DNA of 24,000 nucleotides from Achromobacter sp. M1 (lineage in GTDB: Bacteria; Pseudomonadota; Gammaproteobacteria; Burkholderiales; Burkholderiaceae_B): positions 3,209,173 through 3,233,172 of the forward strand of contig CP159308.1 in the NCBI GenBank assembly GCA_046736065.1. The letters are read 5' to 3'. This document shows, one piece after another, positions 2,611 through 15,820 of this stretch (positions are counted from its first letter, which is position 1; each line of letters opens with the position of its first letter). The position numbers and the translations under genes were made by a program. Under the pieces are notes generated by a model. That model did not search any database. It was not told where the DNA came from and saw only the letters and a list, made by a program, of their open reading frames with translations.

Positions 2611-2646
2611 GTAAGCGCCTGCTGAACACACCCTTGACGGTTCTGC

Positions 2647-4217
2647 TTATGCAGCAGGTTGCCACCGATGCGGCAGCAGCTCAGCGATCTGGCTGTTTTT
2701 CTGCGTGGGCAGGCGCGTGAGCACGTCCTTCAGATAGGCGTACGGGTCGTGCCCATTGAGCCGCGCCGACTGGATCAGGCTCATAATGGCGGCCGCACGC
2801 TGCCCGCCGCGCAGCGAGCCTGCGAACAACCAGTTCGAGCGCCCGATCGCCCAGGGCCGGATCTGGTTCTCCACCCAGTTGTTGTCGATCGGTGCATCGC
2901 CATCATCAAGATAGCGCGTGAGCGCCTCCCAGCGCTTGAGGCTGTAGTCGATGGCGCGTGCGGTACCCGAGCCATCGGGCACGCGCTGGCGCTGCGCGAT
3001 CAGCCATCGATGCAAGGTCTCGGCGATCGGCCTGGCGCGATCCTGACGTATCCGCCTGCGCTCGTCGGCAGGCAGGTCGGCTACGTCCCGCTCTACGCCG
3101 TAGAGCGCGCCGAACAGATCCAGTGCCTCTCCGGCGATCTGGCTCTGGTGGCTCGCATGCAGGTCATGGAACTTGCGCCTGGCGTGCGCCATGCAGCCAA
3201 GTTCCTTGATGCCGGCAGCGAAGCCGGCCTTGTAGCCCACATAATCGTCGGTCACCAGTTTGCCGCGCCAATCTTGCAGGAACGTGCGGCAGTGCTCACC
3301 GGCCCGGCTTGGCGCGAAGTCGTAGAGCACTGCACGCAGGCTGTCGAACGAGGTCGGTGTGTATGCCCACAAGTAGGCCCGGTGCGTCTTGCCCGCGCCC
3401 GGATTGAGCATCTGCACTGGCGTCTCGTCGGCATGCAGCACGGGTTTGCCCAGCACCTCGGCCTTGAGCGCATCGACCAGCGGCTGCAACCGCAGCCCGC
3501 ATACGCCGACCCACTCGCCCAGCGTCGAGCGCGGCAGCGCCAGACCGGCGCGCGCAAAGATGCCTTCCTGGCGGTATAGCGGCAGGTGGTCGGCGAACTT
3601 GGCCACCAGCACCTGCGCCAGAAGTCCCGCCGTCGGGATGCCCTTGTCGATGACCTGCGCGGGGACCGGCGCCTGCGTGAGCGTCTCGCAGTGCTCGCAC
3701 ACCCATTTGCCGCGGATGTGACGTTCGACCGTAAAGACGCCGGCAGGTAATCCAGCTTCTCGCTGACGTCCTCGCCGATGCGCTTCAAGCCGCAGCCGCA
3801 GCGGCACGTCGTGGACGCCGGTTCGTGATGGATGTCGGTGCGCGGCAGTTCGGGCGGCAACCGCATGCGGCGCGGCGCTTGCGGCGGCGCAGGCTTGGCG
3901 GATATCGCCTCGCGCAGCGCGTTGACTTCCTCTTCGATAGCCGCCATGTCGGCATCCATCGTTTCTTCCAGAAGGCTTGCCTGCGCAGGGTTCAGTTGCT
4001 CGCTGCGCTTGCCGTAACGCCAGCGCTTGTACAGCGCCAGCTCCTGCATGAGCTGGTCGATGTGCGTCTGTTTGAAGTGCAGTACGCGATCCCGCTCGGC
4101 AACCACCGCATCGTGCGCCGCTATCTGGGCGTCACGCGCGGCCACCTCGCCCATCAGGCGTTCGGCCAACGCGCGCAGTTGCTGTGCGTCGAGGTGATCC
4201 AGGGATGCGGTACTCAT
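2647..4217 (-). pseudogene. tnpC: IS66-family transposase TnpC (Orf3), one frame break as sequenced near 3738-3746
   Basis: ATG at 4217 (MSTASLDHLDAQQLRALAERL...). The N-terminal leucine-zipper/zinc-finger part (..CRCGCGLKRIGEDVSEKLDYLP) is in one frame. The remainder (VFTVERHIRGKWVCEHCE...DETPVQML...DDYVGY...CMAHARRKF...NWVENQIRP..GRSNWLFAGS) is in the -1-deletion frame. Confidence 0.88.
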
Positions 4218-4279
4218 GGCCCACAGTATGCCGCAGGGTTCGCAGCGGCGATATTGGCGTCTTGCCGGATTGTCCGGCG

Positions 4280-4615
4280 CTACAACACCGAGATCGCGCC
4301 TGCCGCGCCCACATGCTGCCAAGGCAGGCCCAGCACCAGCGCCTGCCACTGCTCACTGTCGACCGCGACGTGTGGGCCGCGCAGCGCATCGGCCCACACG
4401 AACTTGCCGCGGTTCAGCCGGCGCGCGGCCAGCCACACGCCGATCCCGTCATGTACCAGCACCTTCATGCGGTTGGCGCGCCGGTTTGCGAAGCAATAGG
4501 CGTGGTGCGGACGGGCCGAACCGAACACGGCCACCACCCGGGCCAGTGCCGTCTCGGTGCCGGCGCGCATGTCCAGCGGCTCGGTGGCCAGCCAGATCGC
4601 ATCGACACGGATCAC
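4280..4615 (-). CDS. tnpB: IS66-family accessory protein TnpB (Orf2)
   Basis: VIRVDAIWLATEPLDMRAGTETALARVV...KVLVHDGIGVWLAARRLNRGKFVW is the typical IS66 Orf2 sequence. The GTG start at 4615 overlaps the tnpA stop (GTGA). Confidence 0.88.
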   Translation of the reverse strand: MIRVDAIWLATEPLDMRAGTETALARVVAVFGSARPHHAYCFANRRANRMKVLVHDGIGVWLAARRLNRGKFVWADALRGPHVAVDSEQWQALVLGLPWQHVGAAGAISVL

Positions 4616-4959
4616 CGCAGCCACTCGCGTAGCCACGCCACACATGCGCCCGCTTCACTCACGGGCCATTGCACCGTCGCTTGCGCGGGACCGCGCGACA
4701 AGTGAATCTCGATGTGACGGCCTGACGAGGGCACCGCAGGCAACGCGACCGGCACGAACGTCGGCGCTACAGGGGCCTGCCGTTCGGCCTGGCGAATCCA
4801 CTTATGCACCAGGTTCGCGTTCACGCCGTGTGACAGCGCCACGCCGGCAATGGAGGTTTCTGGCTGGCTGCACTGGGCCACGATCTGGGCCTTCAGCGCC
4901 TTCGGATAAGACCGACGCTTAGGAACCGGCGCTAATTCTGTCTTCGACATGGTGTCCAC
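4612..4959 (-). CDS. tnpA: IS66-family protein TnpA (Orf1, HTH)
   Basis: 115-aa ORF. ...RRSYPKALKAQIVAQCSQPETSIAGVALSHGVNANLVHKWIRQ is the typical IS66 Orf1 HTH region. Confidence 0.85.
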   Translation of the reverse strand: MDTMSKTELAPVPKRRSYPKALKAQIVAQCSQPETSIAGVALSHGVNANLVHKWIRQAERQAPVAPTFVPVALPAVPSSGRHIEIHLSRGPAQATVQWPVSEAGACVAWLREWLR

Positions 4960-5023
4960 CTAAAAGTGGTGGACACTATCGAGGACAACGCACGCGCTCA
5001 ATATGTGTTCGCCGGGCGCTTAC

Positions 5024-5389
5024 TGTCAGCCCGCTATCCTCGCAGGCCATAGCGGTGCTGAAAGATTTGCAGCACATCACGAGTGGCGGACGCTATCTGT
5101 TCCCGCACAGGAGCGGAAAAGGCTTCACCACATCCAACCGGCTGACCTACGCCATGCGCGACATGAACCTGGGCCGGGGTACGACGCCGCATTGCTGGCG
5201 GACGACCTTTTCAACCTGGGCCGATGAGAACGGATACCGGCCTGATGCAATCGAGCGGCAGCTTGCCCCGTGGAAAGCAATAAGGTGCGGGCGACGTACA
5301 ACAAGGCGCTGCTGCTGGATCAGAGAAGGACGCTGTTGCAGGACTGGGCGGACTATCTGAGTGCTGCGGAAGACAGCGGCACAGCATAG
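5024..5389 (+). pseudogene. int: C-terminal part of the same P4-type integrase (starts with the right TSD copy); additional 1-nt frame break near 5266-5270
   Basis: VSPLSSQAIAVLKDLQHITSGGRYLFP...TPHCWRTTFSTWADENGYRPDAIERQLA contains the H-x2-R box. After restoring one base the sequence continues HVESNKVRATYNKALLLDQRRTLLQDWADYLSAAEDSGTA*, with the catalytic Tyr in RATYN, and ends at TAG 5387-5389. Confidence 0.88.
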
Positions 5390-5518
5390 GGACAACTTCG
5401 CCGAGTGTTGCAGAACGAATGGACGGGTACGGCCTTTTCCGGGTAGGGCCATTGTTCCTTGAGTGCCGTTCCCTTGCCATTTTTTCAAGGGCTGGACGCT
5501 AAAAATAGGGTAATCAAG

Positions 5519-5565: not shown

Positions 5566-7200
5566 TCAGGGAAGCAAAGGCAATCCTAGTTCAGCCAGAT
5601 ACTGGTTGTGACGTTTCTTGGCCTCGGCGACCTTCTGCTCGGCGGACACTAGGTCGGCGTGTACGGTCGCCAGGACGATCTCTTCCTCGGTTTCCGCCGT
5701 GCTCACGTAGCGTGAGATGTTGAGGTTGAAATCGTTCTTTTCGATTTCTTCCATGCTTACCCGGCGCGAATAGCGTGGTTCTCCCTTGCGAAACTGATAA
5801 GTGTCGATGATCTTTTCGATGTGCCCGATTTCACCATCAGGCATTTCGTCTGTTCTCAGTAGTCGGTTTTGCCGCTTGCCCTTCTCGAAGTGTTCGGAGG
5901 CGTTAATGAACAACACGTCGTCTGGCTTTTTACACTTCTTCAGCACCAGGAGGCACACTGGGATGCCGGTGGAGAAGAACAGGTTCGCGGGCAGGCCAAT
6001 CACCGTGTCGATATGCCCATCCTTGAGCAACTTGGTGCGGATGCGGGCCTCGGCCCCGCCCCGGAACAGTACGCCGTGGGGTAGGATGATGGCCATTACC
6101 CCGTCTTGCTTCAGGAAGTGGAAGCCGTGCAGCAGGAAGGCGAAGTCCGCTGCCGACTTCGGTGCCAGCCCATAATTCTTGAAGCGGGTGTCTTCGCCCA
6201 GTGCCTCGCTAGGCTCCCAGCGGTAGCTGAACGGCGGGTTGGCAACCACGGCGTCGAACCTAGGCATCTTGGCTGGGTTGGTCTCACGCAGCATGTCCCA
6301 CTCATTGAGAAGGGTGTCACCGTGGAAGATGTCAAACTCCGAGTCCTTCATCCCGTGCAGCAGCATATTCATGCGTGCCAGGTTGTAGGTAGTGATGTTC
6401 TTCTCTTGGCCGTGAATCTTGCCAATGCCATGCGGCCCCATACGGTGGCGCACGTTCAACAGCAAGGAACCTGAGCCACAGGCAAAGTCGAGCACGCTAT
6501 CGAGGTGCGAGCGCTTGCCTGTGGCAGGTTCCTGGCTGTCCAGTGTGACGATGGCCGACAGGACGTCTGAAATACGTTGTGGCGTGTAGAATTCGCCGGC
6601 CTTCTTGCCAGAGCCTGCTGCGAACTGGGCGATCAGGTATTCATAGGCATCACCCAGGGTATCACTGTCGGTGGAGAACTGCCCCAGCCCCTTGGCGATC
6701 TCGGCGATGATCTTGCACAGGCGAGCATTGCGCTCGGCGTAGGTCTTGCCCAGTTTGTCGGAGGCCAAGTTGATCTCCGAGAATAGCCCTCGGAAGGTGC
6801 TGGCGAAAGACTCCTCCTCAATGTATTTGAACCCCTTCTGCAAGGTATGCAGCAGCTCGTCATCCTGCGTGCGCGCCATCTCGGCGATGTTGCCCCACAG
6901 GTATTGGGGTTCGATCACATAATGCACCTTGCGGCGCATCTGCTTCTCGAATTCCTGCACATCGTCCAGGTTGCATTCGTACCAGAGCTGCAACGGTGTA
7001 GAGACTGAGCCATCAATCTGTTCTGGATAGTCTGACCCCAGCTCCTTCTGAGCGGCGGCCTCGTAGTTGTCCGACAGATAGCGCAGGAACAAAAAGGCCA
7101 GCATATAATCGCGGAAATCGTCCGCATTCATCGCACCGCGCAGTTGGTCGGCGATGACCCAGAGGGTCTTGCCCAGTTTTTGTTTTTCGAATTCGGTCAT
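5566..7200 (-). CDS. hsdM: Type I restriction-modification system, DNA methyltransferase subunit HsdM
   Basis: 544 aa. It has an HsdM N-terminal domain (LWVIADQLRGAMNADDFRDYMLAFLFLRYLSD), a SAM motif (DFACGSGSLLL) and the N6-adenine MTase motif IV (VVANPPFSYRW). Confidence 0.95.
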   Translation of the reverse strand: MTEFEKQKLGKTLWVIADQLRGAMNADDFRDYMLAFLFLRYLSDNYEAAAQKELGSDYPEQIDGSVSTPLQLWYECNLDDVQEFEKQMRRKVHYVIEPQYLWGNIAEMARTQDDELLHTLQKGFKYIEEESFASTFRGLFSEINLASDKLGKTYAERNARLCKIIAEIAKGLGQFSTDSDTLGDAYEYLIAQFAAGSGKKAGEFYTPQRISDVLSAIVTLDSQEPATGKRSHLDSVLDFACGSGSLLLNVRHRMGPHGIGKIHGQEKNITTYNLARMNMLLHGMKDSEFDIFHGDTLLNEWDMLRETNPAKMPRFDAVVANPPFSYRWEPSEALGEDTRFKNYGLAPKSAADFAFLLHGFHFLKQDGVMAIILPHGVLFRGGAEARIRTKLLKDGHIDTVIGLPANLFFSTGIPVCLLVLKKCKKPDDVLFINASEHFEKGKRQNRLLRTDEMPDGEIGHIEKIIDTYQFRKGEPRYSRRVSMEEIEKNDFNLNISRYVSTAETEEEIVLATVHADLVSAEQKVAEAKKRHNQYLAELGLPLLP

Positions 7201-8312
7201 GGTGTACCTGCTGTTGCAGCCTCAGCGATCTGAGGGAATAAATCGGGATTGAAGGGGTAGCGGTTCAGGAAGTCATTCAGAATCTTCCTGAAGTAGGCCT
7301 TGTTTTCATCGAGCATCTGCTGCGGCTCATACAGCGAGTAATTGCCGTGGCTGAGGATATTAATCAGGCGTGCGTGCAGAATTCCGTCTGGATCGTCATC
7401 GTCATGCTTGATGCAGGCTGAGAAATTCCTGTGCCCATGGAAACTTGCCGTTTTCTCCAGGATCGTGCGCAGCATGTTGAAGTGATGGGTGAACAAGCGA
7501 TCTTCCTGAGCGGCTTGATACAGCTCGGCTAAGGCGGCAACATGATGAAAGAAGGGCGTGTCTCCCTCTTCAGGCCGTAGCAGATAGCCGCCGCTGGCCG
7601 GGTACTTGTTGACGACGTACCGTCGGGCTTTGCCCAGCTCATTGCATAACACATTGAAGAACAAGGTGTGGTGCGTGGAGATCACCGCTTTGAGTTTGTT
7701 GTCCTGCCTTTTGAGCATTTGCGCCAGGTGATTGGCAACGGCAATGGCATTGTGCTCATCCAGCGAAGAGATTGGGTCGTCGATATAGAGGTACTTCACC
7801 CACTGGTAAGCCTCGATCTCGGGGTCCATTGCCAGTTCGACCACCACCAAGAAGAAACACCAGATAAAGATGTTCTCCTCGCCGCGCGACACCTTGATGT
7901 TGTCGATATTCTGTCCGTCCACCAAGCGCGAAAAGCGCACGGCCCATTCGTTTCCCTGAGTGTCAATGCGGAAATCGAAATCCGCGTAACGCCGCAGCAG
8001 CGGGCGGACGCGGTTGTCCATCTCCAATTCAAACAGGCCCTGGAAAAAACGGGAGTCCTTATTGAGCAGTAAGCGGCGATCCGCATCGCCTTCCAGATCG
8101 TTGTTCCAGTGAAACAGATCTTCGGTGAAGGCGTTGAAATACAGCGTATCGCGGGTCTCGTTCTGTTTGCCCATGTCCTTGAAAGCCATGGACAGCCGTG
8201 TCTTGCCAGTGCCGTTGTACGCATAGAGCAGGACGGTTTTCTTGTTTTCCAGCTCGCCGCGCAGATGAGCCGCCAGCTCCGGCAGTTCGGCAAAGGGCTG
8301 GCCTGGTCTCAT
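7197..8312 (-). CDS. PrrC-like protein: ABC/AAA_13-type NTPase N-domain plus C-terminal putative anticodon-nuclease domain
   Basis: 371 aa. NTPase motifs are Walker A AYNGTGKT, LYFNAFTEDLF, the signature-like VSRGEE, Walker B/D-loop YLYIDDPISSLD and the switch STHH. The C-terminus has FNMLRTILEKTASF (R-x3-E) and LINILSHGNY (S-H). ATGA overlaps link it to hsdS upstream and hsdM downstream. Confidence 0.6.
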   Translation of the reverse strand: MRPGQPFAELPELAAHLRGELENKKTVLLYAYNGTGKTRLSMAFKDMGKQNETRDTLYFNAFTEDLFHWNNDLEGDADRRLLLNKDSRFFQGLFELEMDNRVRPLLRRYADFDFRIDTQGNEWAVRFSRLVDGQNIDNIKVSRGEENIFIWCFFLVVVELAMDPEIEAYQWVKYLYIDDPISSLDEHNAIAVANHLAQMLKRQDNKLKAVISTHHTLFFNVLCNELGKARRYVVNKYPASGGYLLRPEEGDTPFFHHVAALAELYQAAQEDRLFTHHFNMLRTILEKTASFHGHRNFSACIKHDDDDPDGILHARLINILSHGNYSLYEPQQMLDENKAYFRKILNDFLNRYPFNPDLFPQIAEAATAGTP

Positions 8313-9498
8313 GCCGGCACCTCATCCGACACCGGAAACATTTGCCGAATCAAGCCCTTTTTGAAGGCCTTGAGGACGTCGACCTTTTGGCTTTGAGTGG
8401 CGATCAGTTTGTCAATCGATATCAGGCAGTCGGCGATTCGATCCTGCTCAGGGGGAGATGGGCATTGCAAGGAAATCTTTGCAAAGTCGTCGTAGTAAAG
8501 GCGCAATCTGTCCTCGGTCAACCCCCTAGAATGCGCAGTCAAGACTTGAAGTGACTGTGGTCGTTTTAATAGGTAATAGAAAAGAGGGAATTCACGCCCT
8601 GTGGCTCTAGAACAATGTAAGCAGGGCTAACCATGCAATCTTCCGGTGCGATTCCCAACGCCCCTTGCCACATCCGCATCATGTTATAAGCAAGATCGCC
8701 AGTGCGCACTGTCTTGTTTGCGCTTGCCTCGGCAATATCATCTATTTTTCGATCTAATGAAGCACGTGGCACCAAGCCGTCTGTCATTGTTACCGAGTAA
8801 ATTGGCAACCCCGGCCTGCCCCGCTCAATCCGGTTCAAAAATAGTTCTCCAGCGGTGACTTTTGACCAACTGCCAGCGCTGCGAAACTCCGGGAATCTCA
8901 GCCGTGGCACGACTTCGCCGTCACGGGGGAAAAGCTGCTGCAACAGGCCTTTCTTGTGGGTTATGAGGGTGTCTAGCTTCCGATTTTCTGTCGTAATTAG
9001 CTCATCAAGAGAAGACAGGCAGTCGGCAATTTTTTGTTGCTCTCCTGGGCACGGAGTCGAGATCGGCATGGGTGCGAATTTGGAGATCCAATGCCGCTCA
9101 TGAGCACCAACTTCATATGAAGTATTCTGCAGGAGTTCATACAGGAACTTGATGTTTTCTCCATTTTTAGCCTGCAATATTTTCATTGCCGACGACTTGG
9201 CCTTGAACGGAAAATCAACGAATTGCGTGGCTGTGGTGAAATCGTCGAAAATTATTACAGGCAACCCTTGAGAAAAAATACCGTGCTTTTCATTTGTATA
9301 TCCCAATACAAATGTCTTGCCAGCTGTCAAAACTGGAGTGTCATAATTTTCGCTGTAGCTGGTATCAGAAACCAGATAATCCGTTGGCTGCTGGTAATCC
9401 AAACACTCCCCGAGCGTTGTCGCCTTCCATTCACCAGCATCTCGAAACTCCGGAAACCGCAACCGTGGTACCAAAGGCTGTTTTTCACTTCCACTCAT
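8309..9498 (-). pseudogene. hsdS: Type I R-M specificity subunit HsdS; single 1-nt frame break as sequenced in an A4/T4 run at 8580-8583 (probably artefactual)
   Basis: The two-TRD architecture shows repeated conserved regions. These are VPRLRFPEFRDAGEW.. and VPRLRFPEFRSAGSW.., then PGEQQKIADCLSSLDELITTENRKLDTLITHKKGLLQQLFP and PPEQDRIADCLISIDKLIATQSQKVDVLKAFKKGLIRQMFP. Adding one T gives a continuous ..NSLFFYYLLKRPQSLQVLTAHSRG.. Confidence 0.9.
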
Positions 9499-9872
9499 GC
9501 CATTTGCTCCTGCGACCGTGCGAGGATCATCTTGAAGAGGTTCCCAGCCCGGTCGCCGATCAGATCAATCTGCGGCCAGGCCCGTAAATCACGCAGCAAG
9601 CTGCCTCCCAGCCCGCGATGCGGCAGGAGCTTGGCGGCAAAGGACGCCAGAATCGAGTTGCGCATATTGCTGTTGACTGCTTTGATGTTTTCGATGGTCA
9701 GGTTATTGGACGGATGGCCGAGGCTGATGCCCGTTTTCTTCAACGTGCTTCCATAGTTGCTGTTGTAGAAGTTGTCATCGCCCGTCAACTTGAATTCGCG
9801 GTTTGCGTGGGTGTGCAAATGGACATCTGCGCGAGTCCAATGCGCGCCTTGTGTAAAAACGGCTCCCATCAT
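9495..9872 (-). CDS. Hypothetical 125-aa protein (orf125) wedged between hsdR and hsdS; N-terminal H-x-H motif (GAHWTRADVHLHTH)
   Basis: The ORF exactly fills the hsdR-hsdS gap, with ATGA overlaps at both ends (9869-9872 and 9495-9498). Its base composition matches the operon. No family was recognised. Confidence 0.6.
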   Translation of the reverse strand: MMGAVFTQGAHWTRADVHLHTHANREFKLTGDDNFYNSNYGSTLKKTGISLGHPSNNLTIENIKAVNSNMRNSILASFAAKLLPHRGLGGSLLRDLRAWPQIDLIGDRAGNLFKMILARSQEQMA

Positions 9873-12847
9873 CGTCCCTCCTCATAGGCGGCGAGGCCAG
9901 CAATGTCTTGGCCTTGGGCAAGCTTGTGTAGTAGCGGCGTCAGCTCCTCCATCAGCGCCAGTTCCTTCTGCGTCCGCGCTTTCCAACTGAGATTCAACGG
10001 GGCCATCAGATCGGAAAGGCGCTCACCGTCGAAGATGCGGCGGTGCAGGATTTCATTGACAAACTCCTGTAGGGCGTCAGGCGCGAGCGCGTGGCGGCTG
10101 GCCATGTCGTTGATTTCCCGCGTCTTCTTTTCTGCCTTGAAGTGGTCGTATCCGGCACGAATCTGCCGCTCATCCAGGGCTTCATTGACCGGCAAGCTGC
10201 GGATGTACTCGGCAATAACCTCCCGCTCGTCGATAAACTTGGCATCGGACTGGATGAGACCTATGAGCTGCTCCCGATTCATCGTGAGCTTGCCGGGCTT
10301 CTGCTGGGTCAGTTTCGCAATCAGGCCCATGATGTAGTCGTAGTCGATCACCGACGAGGCGAAGAGTACAAACTCGAAGTCAAGCTGCTGTACATCGGGT
10401 GGAGCCTGATCGCCCTCCTTGCTCTGTATTTCTTTCAGATGCTTGGCGGTTTCAAGGTAGGTACTGCGGAAGCTCTGCAACTGGTCTGGCGACAGGATGG
10501 TGTCAATGCGCTCTTTCTGCTCTGGTGCCAAATCGGTGTACTGATCGAGCTGGGTTTTGAGCCGTTGCACCTCTTTGAAACGGTTGACGAACTCGATGCG
10601 GGCGGTATCCCCCTTGAGGTTGTATACCGCCTCGGGTTCGCAAATGAGGTTCTTGTCCGTCATGAAGCGCGACATGCCTGCCACGGCGGCTTCGTATTTG
10701 TGGATGACCTCTGCTGCGGATTCCACTAGCCAGATTTCGCGAGGGTTGTCGATCTTTTCTCCGGAAAAGAGCGCAATCGCTTCCTCAACCGGATTCTGTT
10801 GCTGGCGGAAGTCGAGAATATTGCCGTAAGGTTTGCTATCGTTGAGCACGCGATTGGTGCGCGAAAACGCCTGGATCAGGCCGTGGTACTTGAGGTTCTT
10901 GTCCACGTACAGGGTGTTGAGGTACTTGGAGTCGAAGCCGGTGAGTAGCATGTCCACCACGATGGTGACGTCGATTTTCTGCGCGGCGGGCAGGTCGGCG
11001 TTGGGATACTGCTGATCCTTGATGCGCTTTTGCACATCCTGGTAGTACAGGTCGAACTCACTGATACGGTGGTTGGTACCAAAGCGTGCGTTGTAATCGG
11101 CGACGATGCGAGTGAGTGCCGCCTTCTTGCCCTCTGGGTCTTTCTTGTTGTCTTCTTGTTCTTGTGGCAGGTCTTCCTGAATCTGCTGCACGTCCTTGTT
11201 GCCGTCAGCTGGTGGGGAGAACACGCAGGCGACATTCAACGGACGGAATTCGGGGTCTTGCTCTGTTTTTTGGTTCTGAATGCGCGCGAACAGCTCAAAG
11301 TATTCAATGGCATCGTTGATGCTGGCCGTTGCCAGCACCGCATTGAACTTACGACCATTGGTCGCAGTGTCGTGCTTGGCGAGGATAGTCTCGATGACCT
11401 TGGCTTTGGCTACGCCTTCGCCGGGCTTGGGCGGGTTCTTGCCTTCAGGCTTGAAGTAGTCCACGTGGAAGCGCAGGACATTGCGATCTTCAATGGCGTG
11501 GGTGATGGTGTATTGGTGCAGACAGCGCTGGAATAGATCGTCGGTTGTGCGATAACTGGCCTGCTGACCTTCGATCTGCTGATAGCTGGCGTTCTTCTCG
11601 AATATGGGTGTGCCGGTAAAGCCAAAGAGCTGGGCGTTAGGGAAGAACTCCTTGATGGCTTTGTGGTTGTCGCCGAACTGCGAACGGTGGCATTCATCAA
11701 AGATGAACACCATGCGCTGGTTGCGTAGCGGTTCCAAACGCTCTTTGTAATTGCGCTTGTTGGCCCCGTCCAGGGCAAGGCCCAGCTTCTGAATGGTCGT
11801 GACTATCACCTTGTCGGCGTAGTCATCCGACAGCAGGCGGCGCACCAGTGTTTCGGTATTGGTGTTTTCCTCAACGCAACCTTCCTGGAAGCGGTTGAAT
11901 TCCTCGCGAGTCTGCCGATCCAAGTCTTTGCGGTCGACCACGAACAGACATTTGTCGATGTCTGGATTGTCTTTGAGCAGGGTAGAAGCCTTGAAGGAGG
12001 TGAGAGTCTTGCCCGAGCCGGTGGTATGCCAGATATAGCCGTTTCCGCAGTTCTGGTGGATGCAATCCACGATAGCTTTGACGGCATAGATTTGGTATGG
12101 CCGCATCATCAACAGCTTTTGTTCACTGGCCACTAGCACCATGTAGCGGCTGATCATCTGGCCAAGGATGCACTTGGCCAAAAACTTCTCGGCAAAGCTA
12201 TCGAGCAGGGTAACTTTCTTATTGTCTTCGCTGGCGAACTGATAAATCGGCAGAAAACGCTCATCCGCGTTGAAGCTGAAGTGGCGCGCGTTGTTGTTGG
12301 CGAAGTACCAGGTATCGGTGCGGTTGCTGACGATGAATAGCTGCAAAAAGCACAGCAGCGTTTTGCCGTAACCGTTGCCGGGAACGGCCTTGTAATCAAC
12401 GATCTGCTGCATCGCCCGGCGCGGGCTGACGGCCAGGGTCTTTAGCTCAATTTGCACCACCGGCACCCCATTGATGAGCAGCATCACGTCGTAGCGGTGA
12501 TGGCTGTTTTCGGTGTTGATGCGTAGCTGGTTGATGACCTCGAAGTCGTTCTTACACCAATCCCGGATGTTGACCAAGGTGTAGTTCAGCGGCGTGCCAT
12601 CGTCGCGTTCGAAGCTGTTGATGTTGCGTAGCGTTTGGGCAGCGTTGTAAACATCGTCTGTCACGATGCTTTCCCGCAGGCGCTGGAACTCGCTGTCGGT
12701 CAGGCGCACCCGGTTGAGTGCCTCAAACTTGGCGCGGAAGTTGGCCTCTAGCGCGGTACGGTCTCGGATATCAGGGCGATAGGTGTACTTGAGGTCACCA
12801 AGCTTGGCGATCAGATCGAGTTCGATTTGTTGTTCTGATGTTGTCAT
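9869..12847 (-). CDS. hsdR: Type I restriction enzyme, restriction/helicase subunit HsdR
   Basis: ATG at 12847 is preceded by GAGGAAAGAG (MTTSEQQIELDLIAKLG...). It has a PD-(D/E)xK nuclease region (YDVMLLINGVPVVQIELK), helicase motif I (HTTGSGKTLTSF) and motif II (FIFDECHRSQ). Length is 992 aa. The ORF-track extension to 13075 is rejected. Confidence 0.95.
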   Translation of the reverse strand: MTTSEQQIELDLIAKLGDLKYTYRPDIRDRTALEANFRAKFEALNRVRLTDSEFQRLRESIVTDDVYNAAQTLRNINSFERDDGTPLNYTLVNIRDWCKNDFEVINQLRINTENSHHRYDVMLLINGVPVVQIELKTLAVSPRRAMQQIVDYKAVPGNGYGKTLLCFLQLFIVSNRTDTWYFANNNARHFSFNADERFLPIYQFASEDNKKVTLLDSFAEKFLAKCILGQMISRYMVLVASEQKLLMMRPYQIYAVKAIVDCIHQNCGNGYIWHTTGSGKTLTSFKASTLLKDNPDIDKCLFVVDRKDLDRQTREEFNRFQEGCVEENTNTETLVRRLLSDDYADKVIVTTIQKLGLALDGANKRNYKERLEPLRNQRMVFIFDECHRSQFGDNHKAIKEFFPNAQLFGFTGTPIFEKNASYQQIEGQQASYRTTDDLFQRCLHQYTITHAIEDRNVLRFHVDYFKPEGKNPPKPGEGVAKAKVIETILAKHDTATNGRKFNAVLATASINDAIEYFELFARIQNQKTEQDPEFRPLNVACVFSPPADGNKDVQQIQEDLPQEQEDNKKDPEGKKAALTRIVADYNARFGTNHRISEFDLYYQDVQKRIKDQQYPNADLPAAQKIDVTIVVDMLLTGFDSKYLNTLYVDKNLKYHGLIQAFSRTNRVLNDSKPYGNILDFRQQQNPVEEAIALFSGEKIDNPREIWLVESAAEVIHKYEAAVAGMSRFMTDKNLICEPEAVYNLKGDTARIEFVNRFKEVQRLKTQLDQYTDLAPEQKERIDTILSPDQLQSFRSTYLETAKHLKEIQSKEGDQAPPDVQQLDFEFVLFASSVIDYDYIMGLIAKLTQQKPGKLTMNREQLIGLIQSDAKFIDEREVIAEYIRSLPVNEALDERQIRAGYDHFKAEKKTREINDMASRHALAPDALQEFVNEILHRRIFDGERLSDLMAPLNLSWKARTQKELALMEELTPLLHKLAQGQDIAGLAAYEEGR

Positions 12848-12914
12848 GACTCTTTCCTCAAAGACGCAAACGGTTTGCCATGGCCGTTGCATGGGCGGAT
12901 AAAAGCCGTGGTGC

Positions 12915-13124
12915 TCATGTGTGTTGACCCCCTGACTCAGTGGCATCTTCGTCAGCCCCGCCTGCGCGCACCCACTCGTCCACTTCGGACAGCTGAAACT
13001 TCCACAGTCGCCCCACACGATGCGCTGGTAGGCCCTTGCGCTCTCTCCAGCGATAAACAGTGTCTTTGGCGACACCCAGATGCTGGGCCACGTGTTCAGC
13101 AGTCACCCACGGTTCAGTGCTCAT
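12915..13124 (-). CDS. Excisionase-family (MerR-superfamily-like) helix-turn-helix DNA-binding protein
   Basis: 69 aa. WVTAEHVAQHLGVAKDTVYRWRERKGLPAHRVGRLWKFQLSEVDEWV matches the excisionase-family HTH pattern (..EaA.yLgvs..tvYrw...g.lPa.rvGr.w.f...ev..Wv). It lies 67 nt upstream of hsdR on the same strand. Confidence 0.85.
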   Translation of the reverse strand: MSTEPWVTAEHVAQHLGVAKDTVYRWRERKGLPAHRVGRLWKFQLSEVDEWVRAGGADEDATESGGQHT

Positions 13125-14680: not shown

Positions 14681-15820
14681 CTACGCAGGATGCGGCTGCC
14701 ATTCCCTGGCCTGCATTGCCTGTGCTGTGCTGTCCCCAGCGTTCGTCGGAACGTTTAGCATCTTGCGGATGTTGGCGATGTGCGCCAAGGCCGTTTCACG
14801 CGATGCCGGTGGCGCAGTGGGTTCCGGGCGGGCTTCGGTGCGCGGTGGAGTTGTAGGCCGGTTCGCGGCAGACGTCTCCTTGCGACCTGCCCACAGGCGG
14901 AATTCACCAGCAAATACGCGCTTCACCAAGGCGAAGAAGTAGGCCACGACATTGCGCACGGTGCCGCTCTGGCTGCGTGCCTGCAACTCGTCGAGCACTT
15001 CCTGGCGATGCTGCGGCGGCAGCCGCCGCAAGGCGGCCTGCACGTCCCTTTGCTGATCTGCCTGGGCATTGCTCAGGCAAGGCGGCAAGCTCACCGACTG
15101 CGATGCCGAATCGCCGTCGCTTTCGCGCGCGCGGTACGTACGTTCTTTTTATACATATACGTCTTATACGTATTGCCTTGCTTAGCCGGCATGTGGCAGG
15201 CGTGTTCGGTCTGTTGCGGAACAAGCGTGCTGCCAGCGGAATCGCCAGACAATGGCAGTGGGTCGGCTGCCTCGCTCGCCGGCGACGGCGGCGTAGGGGA
15301 AAATCATCGTCATCCCCGAGATGATCGTGGGTCGCAATGGAGGCGGCTTCAGGTGCCTGTGCCTGCGTTGCCTGAATGTGGACAGCCACCCGATCCACCT
15401 GGTTGTTTTCGTGGCCGATAGACGCTTGCAGAAGCACGGACAGACTGGCATCGAGTGCGCAGGCTTGTTGGAAGTCCAGGGCGCTTTCGTGAACCTGATA
15501 CAGCTCGCTGAGCACATGGCCGGTAAGGGGATCGCGTTGCTGGCCCACCAGGCTGATCCACCCCGTCAGCCGAAGCACGACGAGGACGCGCCGGGCCGTC
15601 TCGTACCCGGCCCTCTGCCCAGCGGGGTGGAGGTGAGATAGCGGCGCAACTGCCCCAGGTTTGCCAGCGGGCTGATGCCCTCAGCAGAGCGCAGCATGCG
15701 CAGAACCTGCCAGCCATTGCGCTCCAATGGCGTGAGGCGGGCATCGAGCATGAGCGAGGTCGGCGTGGTGAAGAAGGCGTCTTGCCCCAGCGGGTTGTGG
15801 CGGGTGAGGTGGTCTGCCAT
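14681..15820 (-). pseudogene. STY4528-family genomic-island replication protein; three apparent 1-nt frame breaks (about 15625, 15296-15303, 15146-15150)
   Basis: ATG at 15820 is preceded by GGAG. Joining the frames gives MADHLTRHNPLGQDAFFTTPTSLMLDARLTPLERNGWQVLRML...LG|QRAGYETARRVLVVLRLTGWISLVGQQRDPLTGHVLSELYQVHE...|FSPTPPSPASE...|..SLPPCLSNAQ...LDELQARSQSGTVRNVVAYFFALVKRVFAGEF. The LDxRLTPLERNxWQV and VRN..AY...LV.R motifs are as I recall for this family. Confidence 0.7.

Follow-up and report, generated by a model that had tools for sequence, protein, structure and literature searches.

The 24,000-nucleotide (nt) stretch of Achromobacter sp. M1 analysed here, referred to as the window (contig CP159308.1 of GenBank assembly GCA_046736065.1, positions 3,209,173 to 3,233,172), carries a block of five minus-strand genes in which a type I restriction-modification (R-M) system is interspersed with two additional genes, one for a protein of 125 amino acids (aa), orf125, and one for a 371-aa ATPase. 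Does this block represent an undescribed composite defence module, as had been proposed in an earlier, sequence-only reading, or a system of a known kind? Profile searches and comparison with homologous loci showed that the ATPase belongs to the described PrrC family and that the layout of the block is the standard one of its relatives, while orf125 appears to be a deletion scar. Rather than an undescribed composite module, the block is an ordinary representative of the PrrC/type I family, whose two-layer phage defence is of a known kind. Taken as a whole, it is very probably one operon encoding a PrrC-guarded, type IC-like R-M system on an Achromobacter genomic island, with the scar of two passenger genes.

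The identification of the 371-aa protein was based on its match to the PADLOC profile of PrrC (PDLC02360; E=7.5e-142; residues 9-356 on positions 20-348 of 372); in Pfam it matched AAA_13. The PrrC family has been defined by a catalytic triad, NTPase motifs, a PrrC box and a constant linkage to EcoprrI homologues (PMC1484252, Blanga-Kanfi et al.). Residues were mapped on a 396-aa protein annotated as 'anticodon nuclease' in a classical prr locus of an E. coli P1-like plasmid (L092), to which the window protein is 32% identical. Walker A could be placed at G34-T38 (G43-T47 in the reference), the PrrC box at LYFNAFTEDLFHWNNDL (LYYNAFTEDLFYWDNDL), the Walker B Asp at D185 (D222), the linchpin His at H214 (H251) and the catalytic triad with its adjacent Lys at R282, E286, K287 and H322 (R320, E324, K325 and H356). 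These motif residues were conserved in at least 97% of 82 homologues. The linkage to a type I system is present as well, prrC being located between hsdS and hsdM with an ATGA overlap on each side. The 371-aa ATPase is a full-length PrrC and a predicted anticodon nuclease; no solved structure was matched at E<=0.01. The sequence-only reading had proposed a type I R-M operon with an abortive-infection-type nuclease tightly coupled to the hsd genes, and the PrrC profile and the ATGA overlaps bear this out. The linkage of PrrC to EcoprrI-type R-M has itself been described since 1990-2006 (PMC1484252).

The stretch for tRNA-Lys recognition (residues 284-294) was not conserved in comparison with the reference; it aligned as EEGDT--PFFH, with His in the place of Tyr294. 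This stretch marks only a subgroup of PrrC and not the family, and homologues without it may have other substrates (PMC1484252). Because the anticodon-recognition stretch of E. coli is not conserved and Tyr294 is replaced, the target of the window PrrC may be a tRNA other than tRNA-Lys.

The two large hsd products showed the domain content of type I enzymes. In HsdR, the Pfam domains HSDR_N, SWI2_SNF2/ResIII, T1R_D3-like and EcoR124_C were found (PADLOC REase_I, 1135 bits; TIGR00348, 392 bits), corresponding to a nuclease N-domain, a superfamily 2 motor and an EcoR124-type C-terminal domain. HsdM consists of HsdM_N and N6_Mtase (TIGR00497, 365 bits; PADLOC MTase_I, 4e-148). The ratio of non-synonymous to synonymous substitution rates (dN/dS) of hsdR, prrC and hsdM was 0.04-0.08.

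Open reading frame (ORF) listing and translation confirmed hsdR, orf125, prrC and hsdM as four intact minus-strand ORFs (Table 1). The gene order given by the sequence-only reading was correct, and the four ATGA junctions, at each of which the stop of one gene overlaps the start of the next, lie exactly where it had placed them (9869-9872, 9495-9498, 8309-8312 and 7197-7200). Since the 7.3-kb block contains 42 ATGA tetranucleotides, their occurrence at all four junctions is not due to chance. ATGA is the commonest overlap type in bacterial operons. Shine-Dalgarno-like purine-rich stretches precede the starts of orf125 (GAGGAGG), hsdS (AGGAG) and prrC (GAGGTG) within the preceding coding sequence. 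The block is also AT-richer than its surroundings, as had been noted, with a GC content of 54.2% against 63-65% in the flanks and the lowest value, 48.9%, in hsdS; the earlier hand counts of two 60-nt lines were exact (33.3% at 9241-9300 and 63.3% at 601-660). Two further claims were correct in part. The chain of five ORFs holds for the four intact ORFs and the ATGA junctions, but hsdS, spanning 1190 nt (9498-8309), is not a single ORF. The overlaps said to lock the two extra genes into the R-M genes are real, but they are generic for the PrrC family, 4-nt overlaps being found at the hsdS/prrC junction in 50 of 84 loci and at the prrC/hsdM junction in 61 of 84. Within the block, sigma-70-like sites were not found (4.2 expected) and terminator-like sites occurred at chance level (10 versus 8.8), and both searches were uninformative.

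Table 1. Genes of the block in the window, the two segments of orf125 and the gene upstream of hsdR.
Feature	Position	Strand	Description
hsdR	9869..12847	-	992 aa, type I restriction subunit, type IC-like
orf125	9495..9872	-	125 aa, ORF between hsdR and hsdS
orf125, nt 1-147	9726..9872	-	derived from the 5' end of a TrlF-family gene (PHP/ABC-ATPase; first 49 codons)
orf125, nt 144-378	9495..9729	-	derived from the 3' end of a gene with SLFN_AlbA_2 and HATPase_c_4 domains (last ~77 codons)
hsdS	8309..9498	-	specificity subunit, split in the window by a 1-nt deletion
prrC	7197..8312	-	371 aa, predicted anticodon nuclease: ABC-ATPase-like N-domain + C-terminal RNase domain
hsdM	5566..7200	-	544 aa, type I methyltransferase subunit
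HTH_17 / excisionase-family DNA-binding gene	12915..13124	-	69 aa, 67 nt upstream of hsdR

When one genome per species was scanned, 504 relatives of the window PrrC were found, and the best 80 loci were inspected. All 80 showed linkage to hsd genes and, wherever flanks exist, the order hsdR-(x)-hsdS-prrC-hsdM. Their hosts include Proteobacteria, Acidobacteria, Chloroflexi, Cyanobacteria and others, and the subfamily is also present on Tn7-like elements and on IncC resistance plasmids; in E. coli and Klebsiella, IncC plasmids carry versions about 90% identical to that of the window, with PrrC annotated as 'AAA family ATPase' or 'anticodon nuclease'. R-S-PrrC-M is how a widespread subfamily is normally arranged; no experimental test of this subfamily was found in a literature search.

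The closest studied system is the prr locus of E. coli (PrrC with the type IC R-M system EcoprrI), which encodes members of the four protein families seen in the window operon. Both PrrC proteins have the R-x3-E...H triad, the PrrC box and the motifs of an ABC-ATPase, prrC is likewise placed inside the hsd operon, where it overlaps or abuts its neighbours, and the presumed logic is alike, a guardian ribonuclease (RNase) being freed when restriction is inhibited (PMC1484252, PMC12707154). The window differs, besides the recognition stretch described above, in its extra scar ORF between hsdR and hsdS and in its order, which is R-S-PrrC-M in place of the classical M-S-PrrC-R. The sequence-only reading had pointed out this departure from hsdM-hsdS-prrC-hsdR, and the classical order was indeed seen in L092. 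Full-length identity to this locus was just 33% for HsdR and 36% for HsdM, a range of 32-36% when PrrC is included, and on account of these values the window system can be regarded as a diverged sister of EcoprrI-PrrC with reordered genes.

The remaining component, orf125, had been taken for an unknown small subunit. As a unit it matched no family in Pfam or PADLOC, and it was found to be composed of the ends of two other genes. In blastn comparisons, its nt 1-147 were 79-85% identical to nt 1-147 of an intact gene located between hsdR and hsdS in seven homologous loci (L001-L006 and L010), and its nt 144-378 were 80-84% identical to nt 3554-3788 of the interval between hsdR and hsdS in its intact form. 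The two halves lie 3.0-3.7 kb apart in these loci. Protein searches gave the same division. Proteins with PF13749 (HATPase_c_4) aligned at 75-81% identity with only the C-terminal ~60% of orf125, and matches of the P0039 type shared only its N-terminal ~50 residues before continuing as a PHP-domain protein. The first parent is represented in L001 by an intact, Ppl-related 880-aa PHP/ABC-ATPase of the TrlF family, scoring 595 bits against NF045780 (cutoff 350). The second is a 387-aa protein carrying SLFN_AlbA_2 and HATPase_c_4 (match 297-361). The breakpoints (147/3554) share a CATC microhomology at 9726-9729. This indicates that orf125 is the scar of a 3410-nt microhomology-mediated deletion, which removed the TrlF and Schlafen-like pair and, as the parent genes lie in different frames, fused their ends in frame. 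Membership of orf125 in either parent family was not supported: only 49 of the 880 TrlF residues are kept (18.8 bits against the NF045780 cutoff of 350; residues 9-51 on profile positions 2-45 of 944), and the ~77 of 387 residues kept from the second parent start ~14 residues inside the HATPase_c_4 match.

The arrangement before the deletion can be seen on the IncC plasmid pNDM102337 and its relatives, in the order HTH, hsdR, TrlF, Schlafen-AlbA_2 protein, hsdS, prrC, hsdM, where HTH stands for helix-turn-helix gene. The two inserted genes are annotated there as 'TrlF family AAA-like ATPase' and 'RNA-binding domain-containing protein', and ATGA overlaps join them to hsdR and hsdS. The window shares with this plasmid the HTH gene, the gene order and the ATGA chaining, its proteins being ~90% identical, but it is without the TrlF and Schlafen-like genes, of which the fused ends alone remain as orf125. 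The TrlF family is very large (>5000 matches) and shows 86-99% identity across genera, including Aeromonas, Klebsiella, Burkholderia, Rhizobium, Vibrio, Teredinibacter and others (P0100-P0219); the origin of the family name was not found in the literature. Four TrlF contexts outside the PrrC operon were sampled (L093-L096). Three of them, on a plasmid, on an element beside resolvases resembling an integrative and conjugative element, and on a chromosome, carried TrlF followed by a Schlafen-AlbA_2 gene as a free-standing pair with no hsd genes nearby; in the fourth (Vibrio), TrlF was paired with an nSTAND3 protein instead. A preferential linkage of orf125 homologues to type I R-M genes, as the proposal of a dedicated component had implied, was thus not observed, the intact pair being mostly free-standing. 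The pair is therefore regarded as an autonomous cassette, probably a defence candidate, which in one subclade was inserted between hsdR and hsdS.

The scar in the window is one of several. The same 125-aa ORF, with all overlaps kept, was found at the same position in a Stutzerimonas stutzeri locus (L081/L082) of different genomic context. Other samples with the same island as the window (380-aa gene, Integrase_1 gene, HTH, hsdR...hsdM, P4-type integrase, ychF) carry other scars. Scars of 93-98 aa (L085 and L087) have breakpoints at 67/3557-3561 and a scar of 184 aa (L089) at 67/3328, and a 90-aa scar with the junction MINAVFMQEPQRLRAN followed by LLPNNL was found in L097, a variant operon that also contains a helicase pair. 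The scar junctions show imperfect microhomologies. As a second deletion, at CAGCC, could have turned the 184-aa form into the 93-98-aa form, the number of independent primary deletions is counted as at least two (147/3554 and 67/3328). All scars, together with two later indels (+6 and -9 nt), keep the frame and both ATGA overlaps. Between scars, dN/dS was 0.26-0.61, compared with 0-0.16 for intact copies of the same segments.

Based on the domain content, HsdM and HsdS would methylate the host DNA and, together with HsdR, cut unmodified incoming DNA. PrrC would be produced from the same transcript and, by analogy with EcoprrI-PrrC, be kept latent by the R-M complex. Upon disabling of this complex by a phage anti-restriction factor, the ATPase domain of PrrC is expected by homology to license the C-terminal RNase (R282/E286/H322), which would then cut tRNA anticodon loops, halt translation and abort the infection. 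With both of its ATGA overlaps kept, the orf125 scar would allow ribosomes ending hsdR to read on to the start of hsdS.

Several points weigh against this overall interpretation. PrrC is only distantly similar to the classical enzyme (32%) and the gene order is rearranged. Restriction, methylation, tRNA cleavage and latency are assigned to the locus by homology. The hsdS frameshift could be real in the strain. Finally, the scars have dN/dS below 1 and kept their frame in every case and through both indels, so that some selection on the ORF, as peptide or as translated segment, is possible; the scars were found via protein calls and searches, which favours in-frame alleles.

The frameshift in hsdS gives rise to the strongest rival explanation, in which the locus is decaying in this strain, with restriction and modification lost and PrrC unregulated or silenced. 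The hsdS span is not a multiple of 3, and the gene is read as a 310-aa ORF (9498-8566) followed by a conserved 77-aa C-terminal piece in another frame (8542-8309), both of which match Methylase_S (Pfam) and Specificity_I (PADLOC). The window was compared with two independent short-read assemblies carrying the same island, L084 (99.975% identity over 8 kb) and L083 (99.7% over 17 kb). Relative to both, the frameshift is caused by a reduction of T5 to T4 at ~8584, inside CTCTTTTTCT; adding back the T gives a frame with the typical HsdS sequence NSLFFYYLLKRPQ, and HsdS is intact in both assemblies (396 aa). This is the sole indel between the window and L084. Towards L083, seven indels were found (16001, 15621, 15300, 15151, 13617, 8584 and 5269), which disrupt hsdS and, in three places, the 380-aa island gene, as well as the genes for the Integrase_1-family protein and the P4-type integrase. 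Decay would agree with the frameshift as it stands in the window, with the other broken island genes and with the splitting of the P4-type integrase by an IS66-family insertion. However, all seven indels are 1-nt deletions in the window and six of them fall in homopolymers of 4-6 nt, the signature of consensus error and not of mutation, and hsdR, prrC and hsdM are intact. For this reason the hsdS frameshift is most likely the result of homopolymer under-calling in the consensus, and decay of the locus is considered unlikely.

Phase variation at the T-run of hsdS was also considered and appeared unlikely, as the same indel pattern strikes unrelated genes. A run of five T is too short for slipped-strand switching.

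If orf125 is a scar, the question arises why its frame has been kept. The peptide itself is probably inert and not a functional subunit, in view of its relaxed amino-acid constraint. A tentative explanation, which we regard as possible without favouring it, is that orf125 is kept open as a 'translational bridge', over which ribosomes leaving hsdR reach the ATGA at the hsdS start, the peptide being irrelevant. Under such a bridge only frame-preserving deletions of the passenger pair would survive. The 147/3554 and 67/3328 deletions, the further junction variants and the two indels all keep the frame while constraint is relaxed there. That frame-preserving scars may be retained to keep translational coupling is a mildly new idea.

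A second rival, in which orf125 has become a neo-functionalised micro-protein, e.g. a Schlafen-like C-terminal tail docking on a partner or on DNA, is much less probable than decay of the locus. It could account for the frame kept in all scar alleles and through the two small indels, for the dN/dS below 1 and for the C-terminal 72 codons, whose nucleotide identity among scars and intact genes is still 79-88%. However, amino-acid constraint is relaxed 3- to 6-fold compared with the intact copies, the N-terminal part varies freely between scar classes (e.g. MINAVFMQEPQRLRAN versus MMGAVFTQGAQWIRAD), and the lengths range from 90 to 184 aa with differing junctions; the low synonymous rate (dS) of the C-terminal segment is found in intact genes too and is hence not specific to a new function.

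The undescribed five-part module of the sequence-only reading, with orf125 and the ATPase as dedicated, co-evolved subunits, receives almost no credence from us, since the chaining of the five genes by ATGA overlaps and the recurrence of the 125-aa ORF in Stutzerimonas stutzeri are outweighed by the membership of the ATPase in a described family, by the joining of two gene ends in orf125 with cuts through the parent domains, and by the absence of orf125-like sequence from ~70 of the 80 inspected PrrC loci.

With regard to the segment in front of hsdS, dS was compared among the window, L001, L003, L010, L081, L085 and L091. In the last ~216 nt (9495-9710) it was 0.26-0.72, against 0.8-1.6 for hsdR, prrC and hsdM in most of the same locus pairs, and it was low in intact genes and scars alike. 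A conserved RNA structure in front of hsdS was rejected (RNAalifold covariation +1.52, which is unfavourable; 2 compensatory pairs; single-sequence z = +1.25), and no promoter-like site was found. Homogenisation by the recombination that swaps hsdS alleles is one possibility for this low dS.

For annotation, these results imply that a 371-aa 'AAA family ATPase' in such operons can be labelled as anticodon nuclease, and that orf125-like ORFs are to be treated as remnants. A false lead is removed, the seemingly new five-gene defence module being a PrrC/type I system with a gene scar. The R-S-PrrC-M subfamily is worth testing, with its 504 species-level matches, its low identity to the studied E. 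coli enzyme and a possibly different tRNA target. The locus illustrates the gain and loss of accessory defence genes inside type I operons, and with its several in-frame scars it provides a simple natural experiment on whether the coupling of translation limits gene loss from operons.

Other passengers were found at the operon junctions of the PrrC family, namely RhuM, YhcG/DUF1016 nuclease, Bro-N, Fic, PIN toxins and a DEAD-helicase pair. RhuM-family genes (~335 aa) are located between hsdS and prrC or between prrC and hsdM, depending on the species (L019, L023, L028, L031 and others). Genes for YhcG/DUF1016, Bro-N, Fic or PIN proteins occupy the hsdR-hsdS, hsdS-prrC or prrC-hsdM gaps of other loci. 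A two-gene insert between hsdS and prrC, encoding a ~261-aa protein without Pfam match and a DEAD/Helicase_C protein of 1050-1140 aa, was seen in L015, L020 and L030 (~6000-10000) and in L097 (3687-7630), where 4-nt overlaps chain the insert. Similar insertions are known from other type I operons: DarTG2 is embedded in such an operon in the RRDM island of enteropathogenic E. coli (PMC12255303), and rloC/E/G were originally found as inserts in C. jejuni type I loci. In these systems, too, the hsdR/hsdS and hsdS/hsdM gaps are insertion sites for accessory defence genes. The window differs from both in having lost a passenger rather than gained one, and its candidate upstream regulator is an HTH_17 protein.

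This HTH gene (Pfam HTH_17, 8.6e-16; TIGR01764 'excise', 52.5 bits) had been described as an excisionase-type gene in front of the block on an integrase-bounded island, and integrase genes were indeed found on both sides. A homologue precedes hsdR in 8 of 66 other loci, including distant metagenome-assembled genomes, at a distance of 67-68 nt in six and 208-216 nt in two. The gene appears to travel with the operon in a subset of loci and could be a regulator of the operon rather than an excisionase; alternatively, it may belong to the island instead of the operon. Membership of the locus in MADS was considered and rejected, the scores for MAD1 (63.6 bits; cutoff 80) and MAD2 (50.8; cutoff 720) and for mad3 all being below the cutoffs and hsdM matching TIGR00497 as given above.

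No tRNA genes were found in the window, and a search for direct att repeats, in which the spacer between ychF and the integrase was compared with the far side of the island, gave no exact repeat of at least 11 nt. The YchF protein of the window is identical to its counterparts in Achromobacter sp. HZ01 and A. pulmonis. Of the 35 substitutions that distinguish the window from L083, about 20 cluster within ~300 bp (14906-15206) in the 380-aa island gene of unknown function, pointing to a small tract of recombination. Beside ychF, the P4-type integrase (1758-2610 + 5024-5390) is split by the 2413-bp IS66-family element (2611-5023), which carries TnpA, TnpB and TnpC, inverted ends starting with GTAAGCGCC and an 8-bp target duplication (GGCTGACA). 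TnpC of this element is itself split over two overlapping frames (2650-3807 and 3255-4349). In L083, which is without the IS66 insertion, the integrase is intact with 403 aa.

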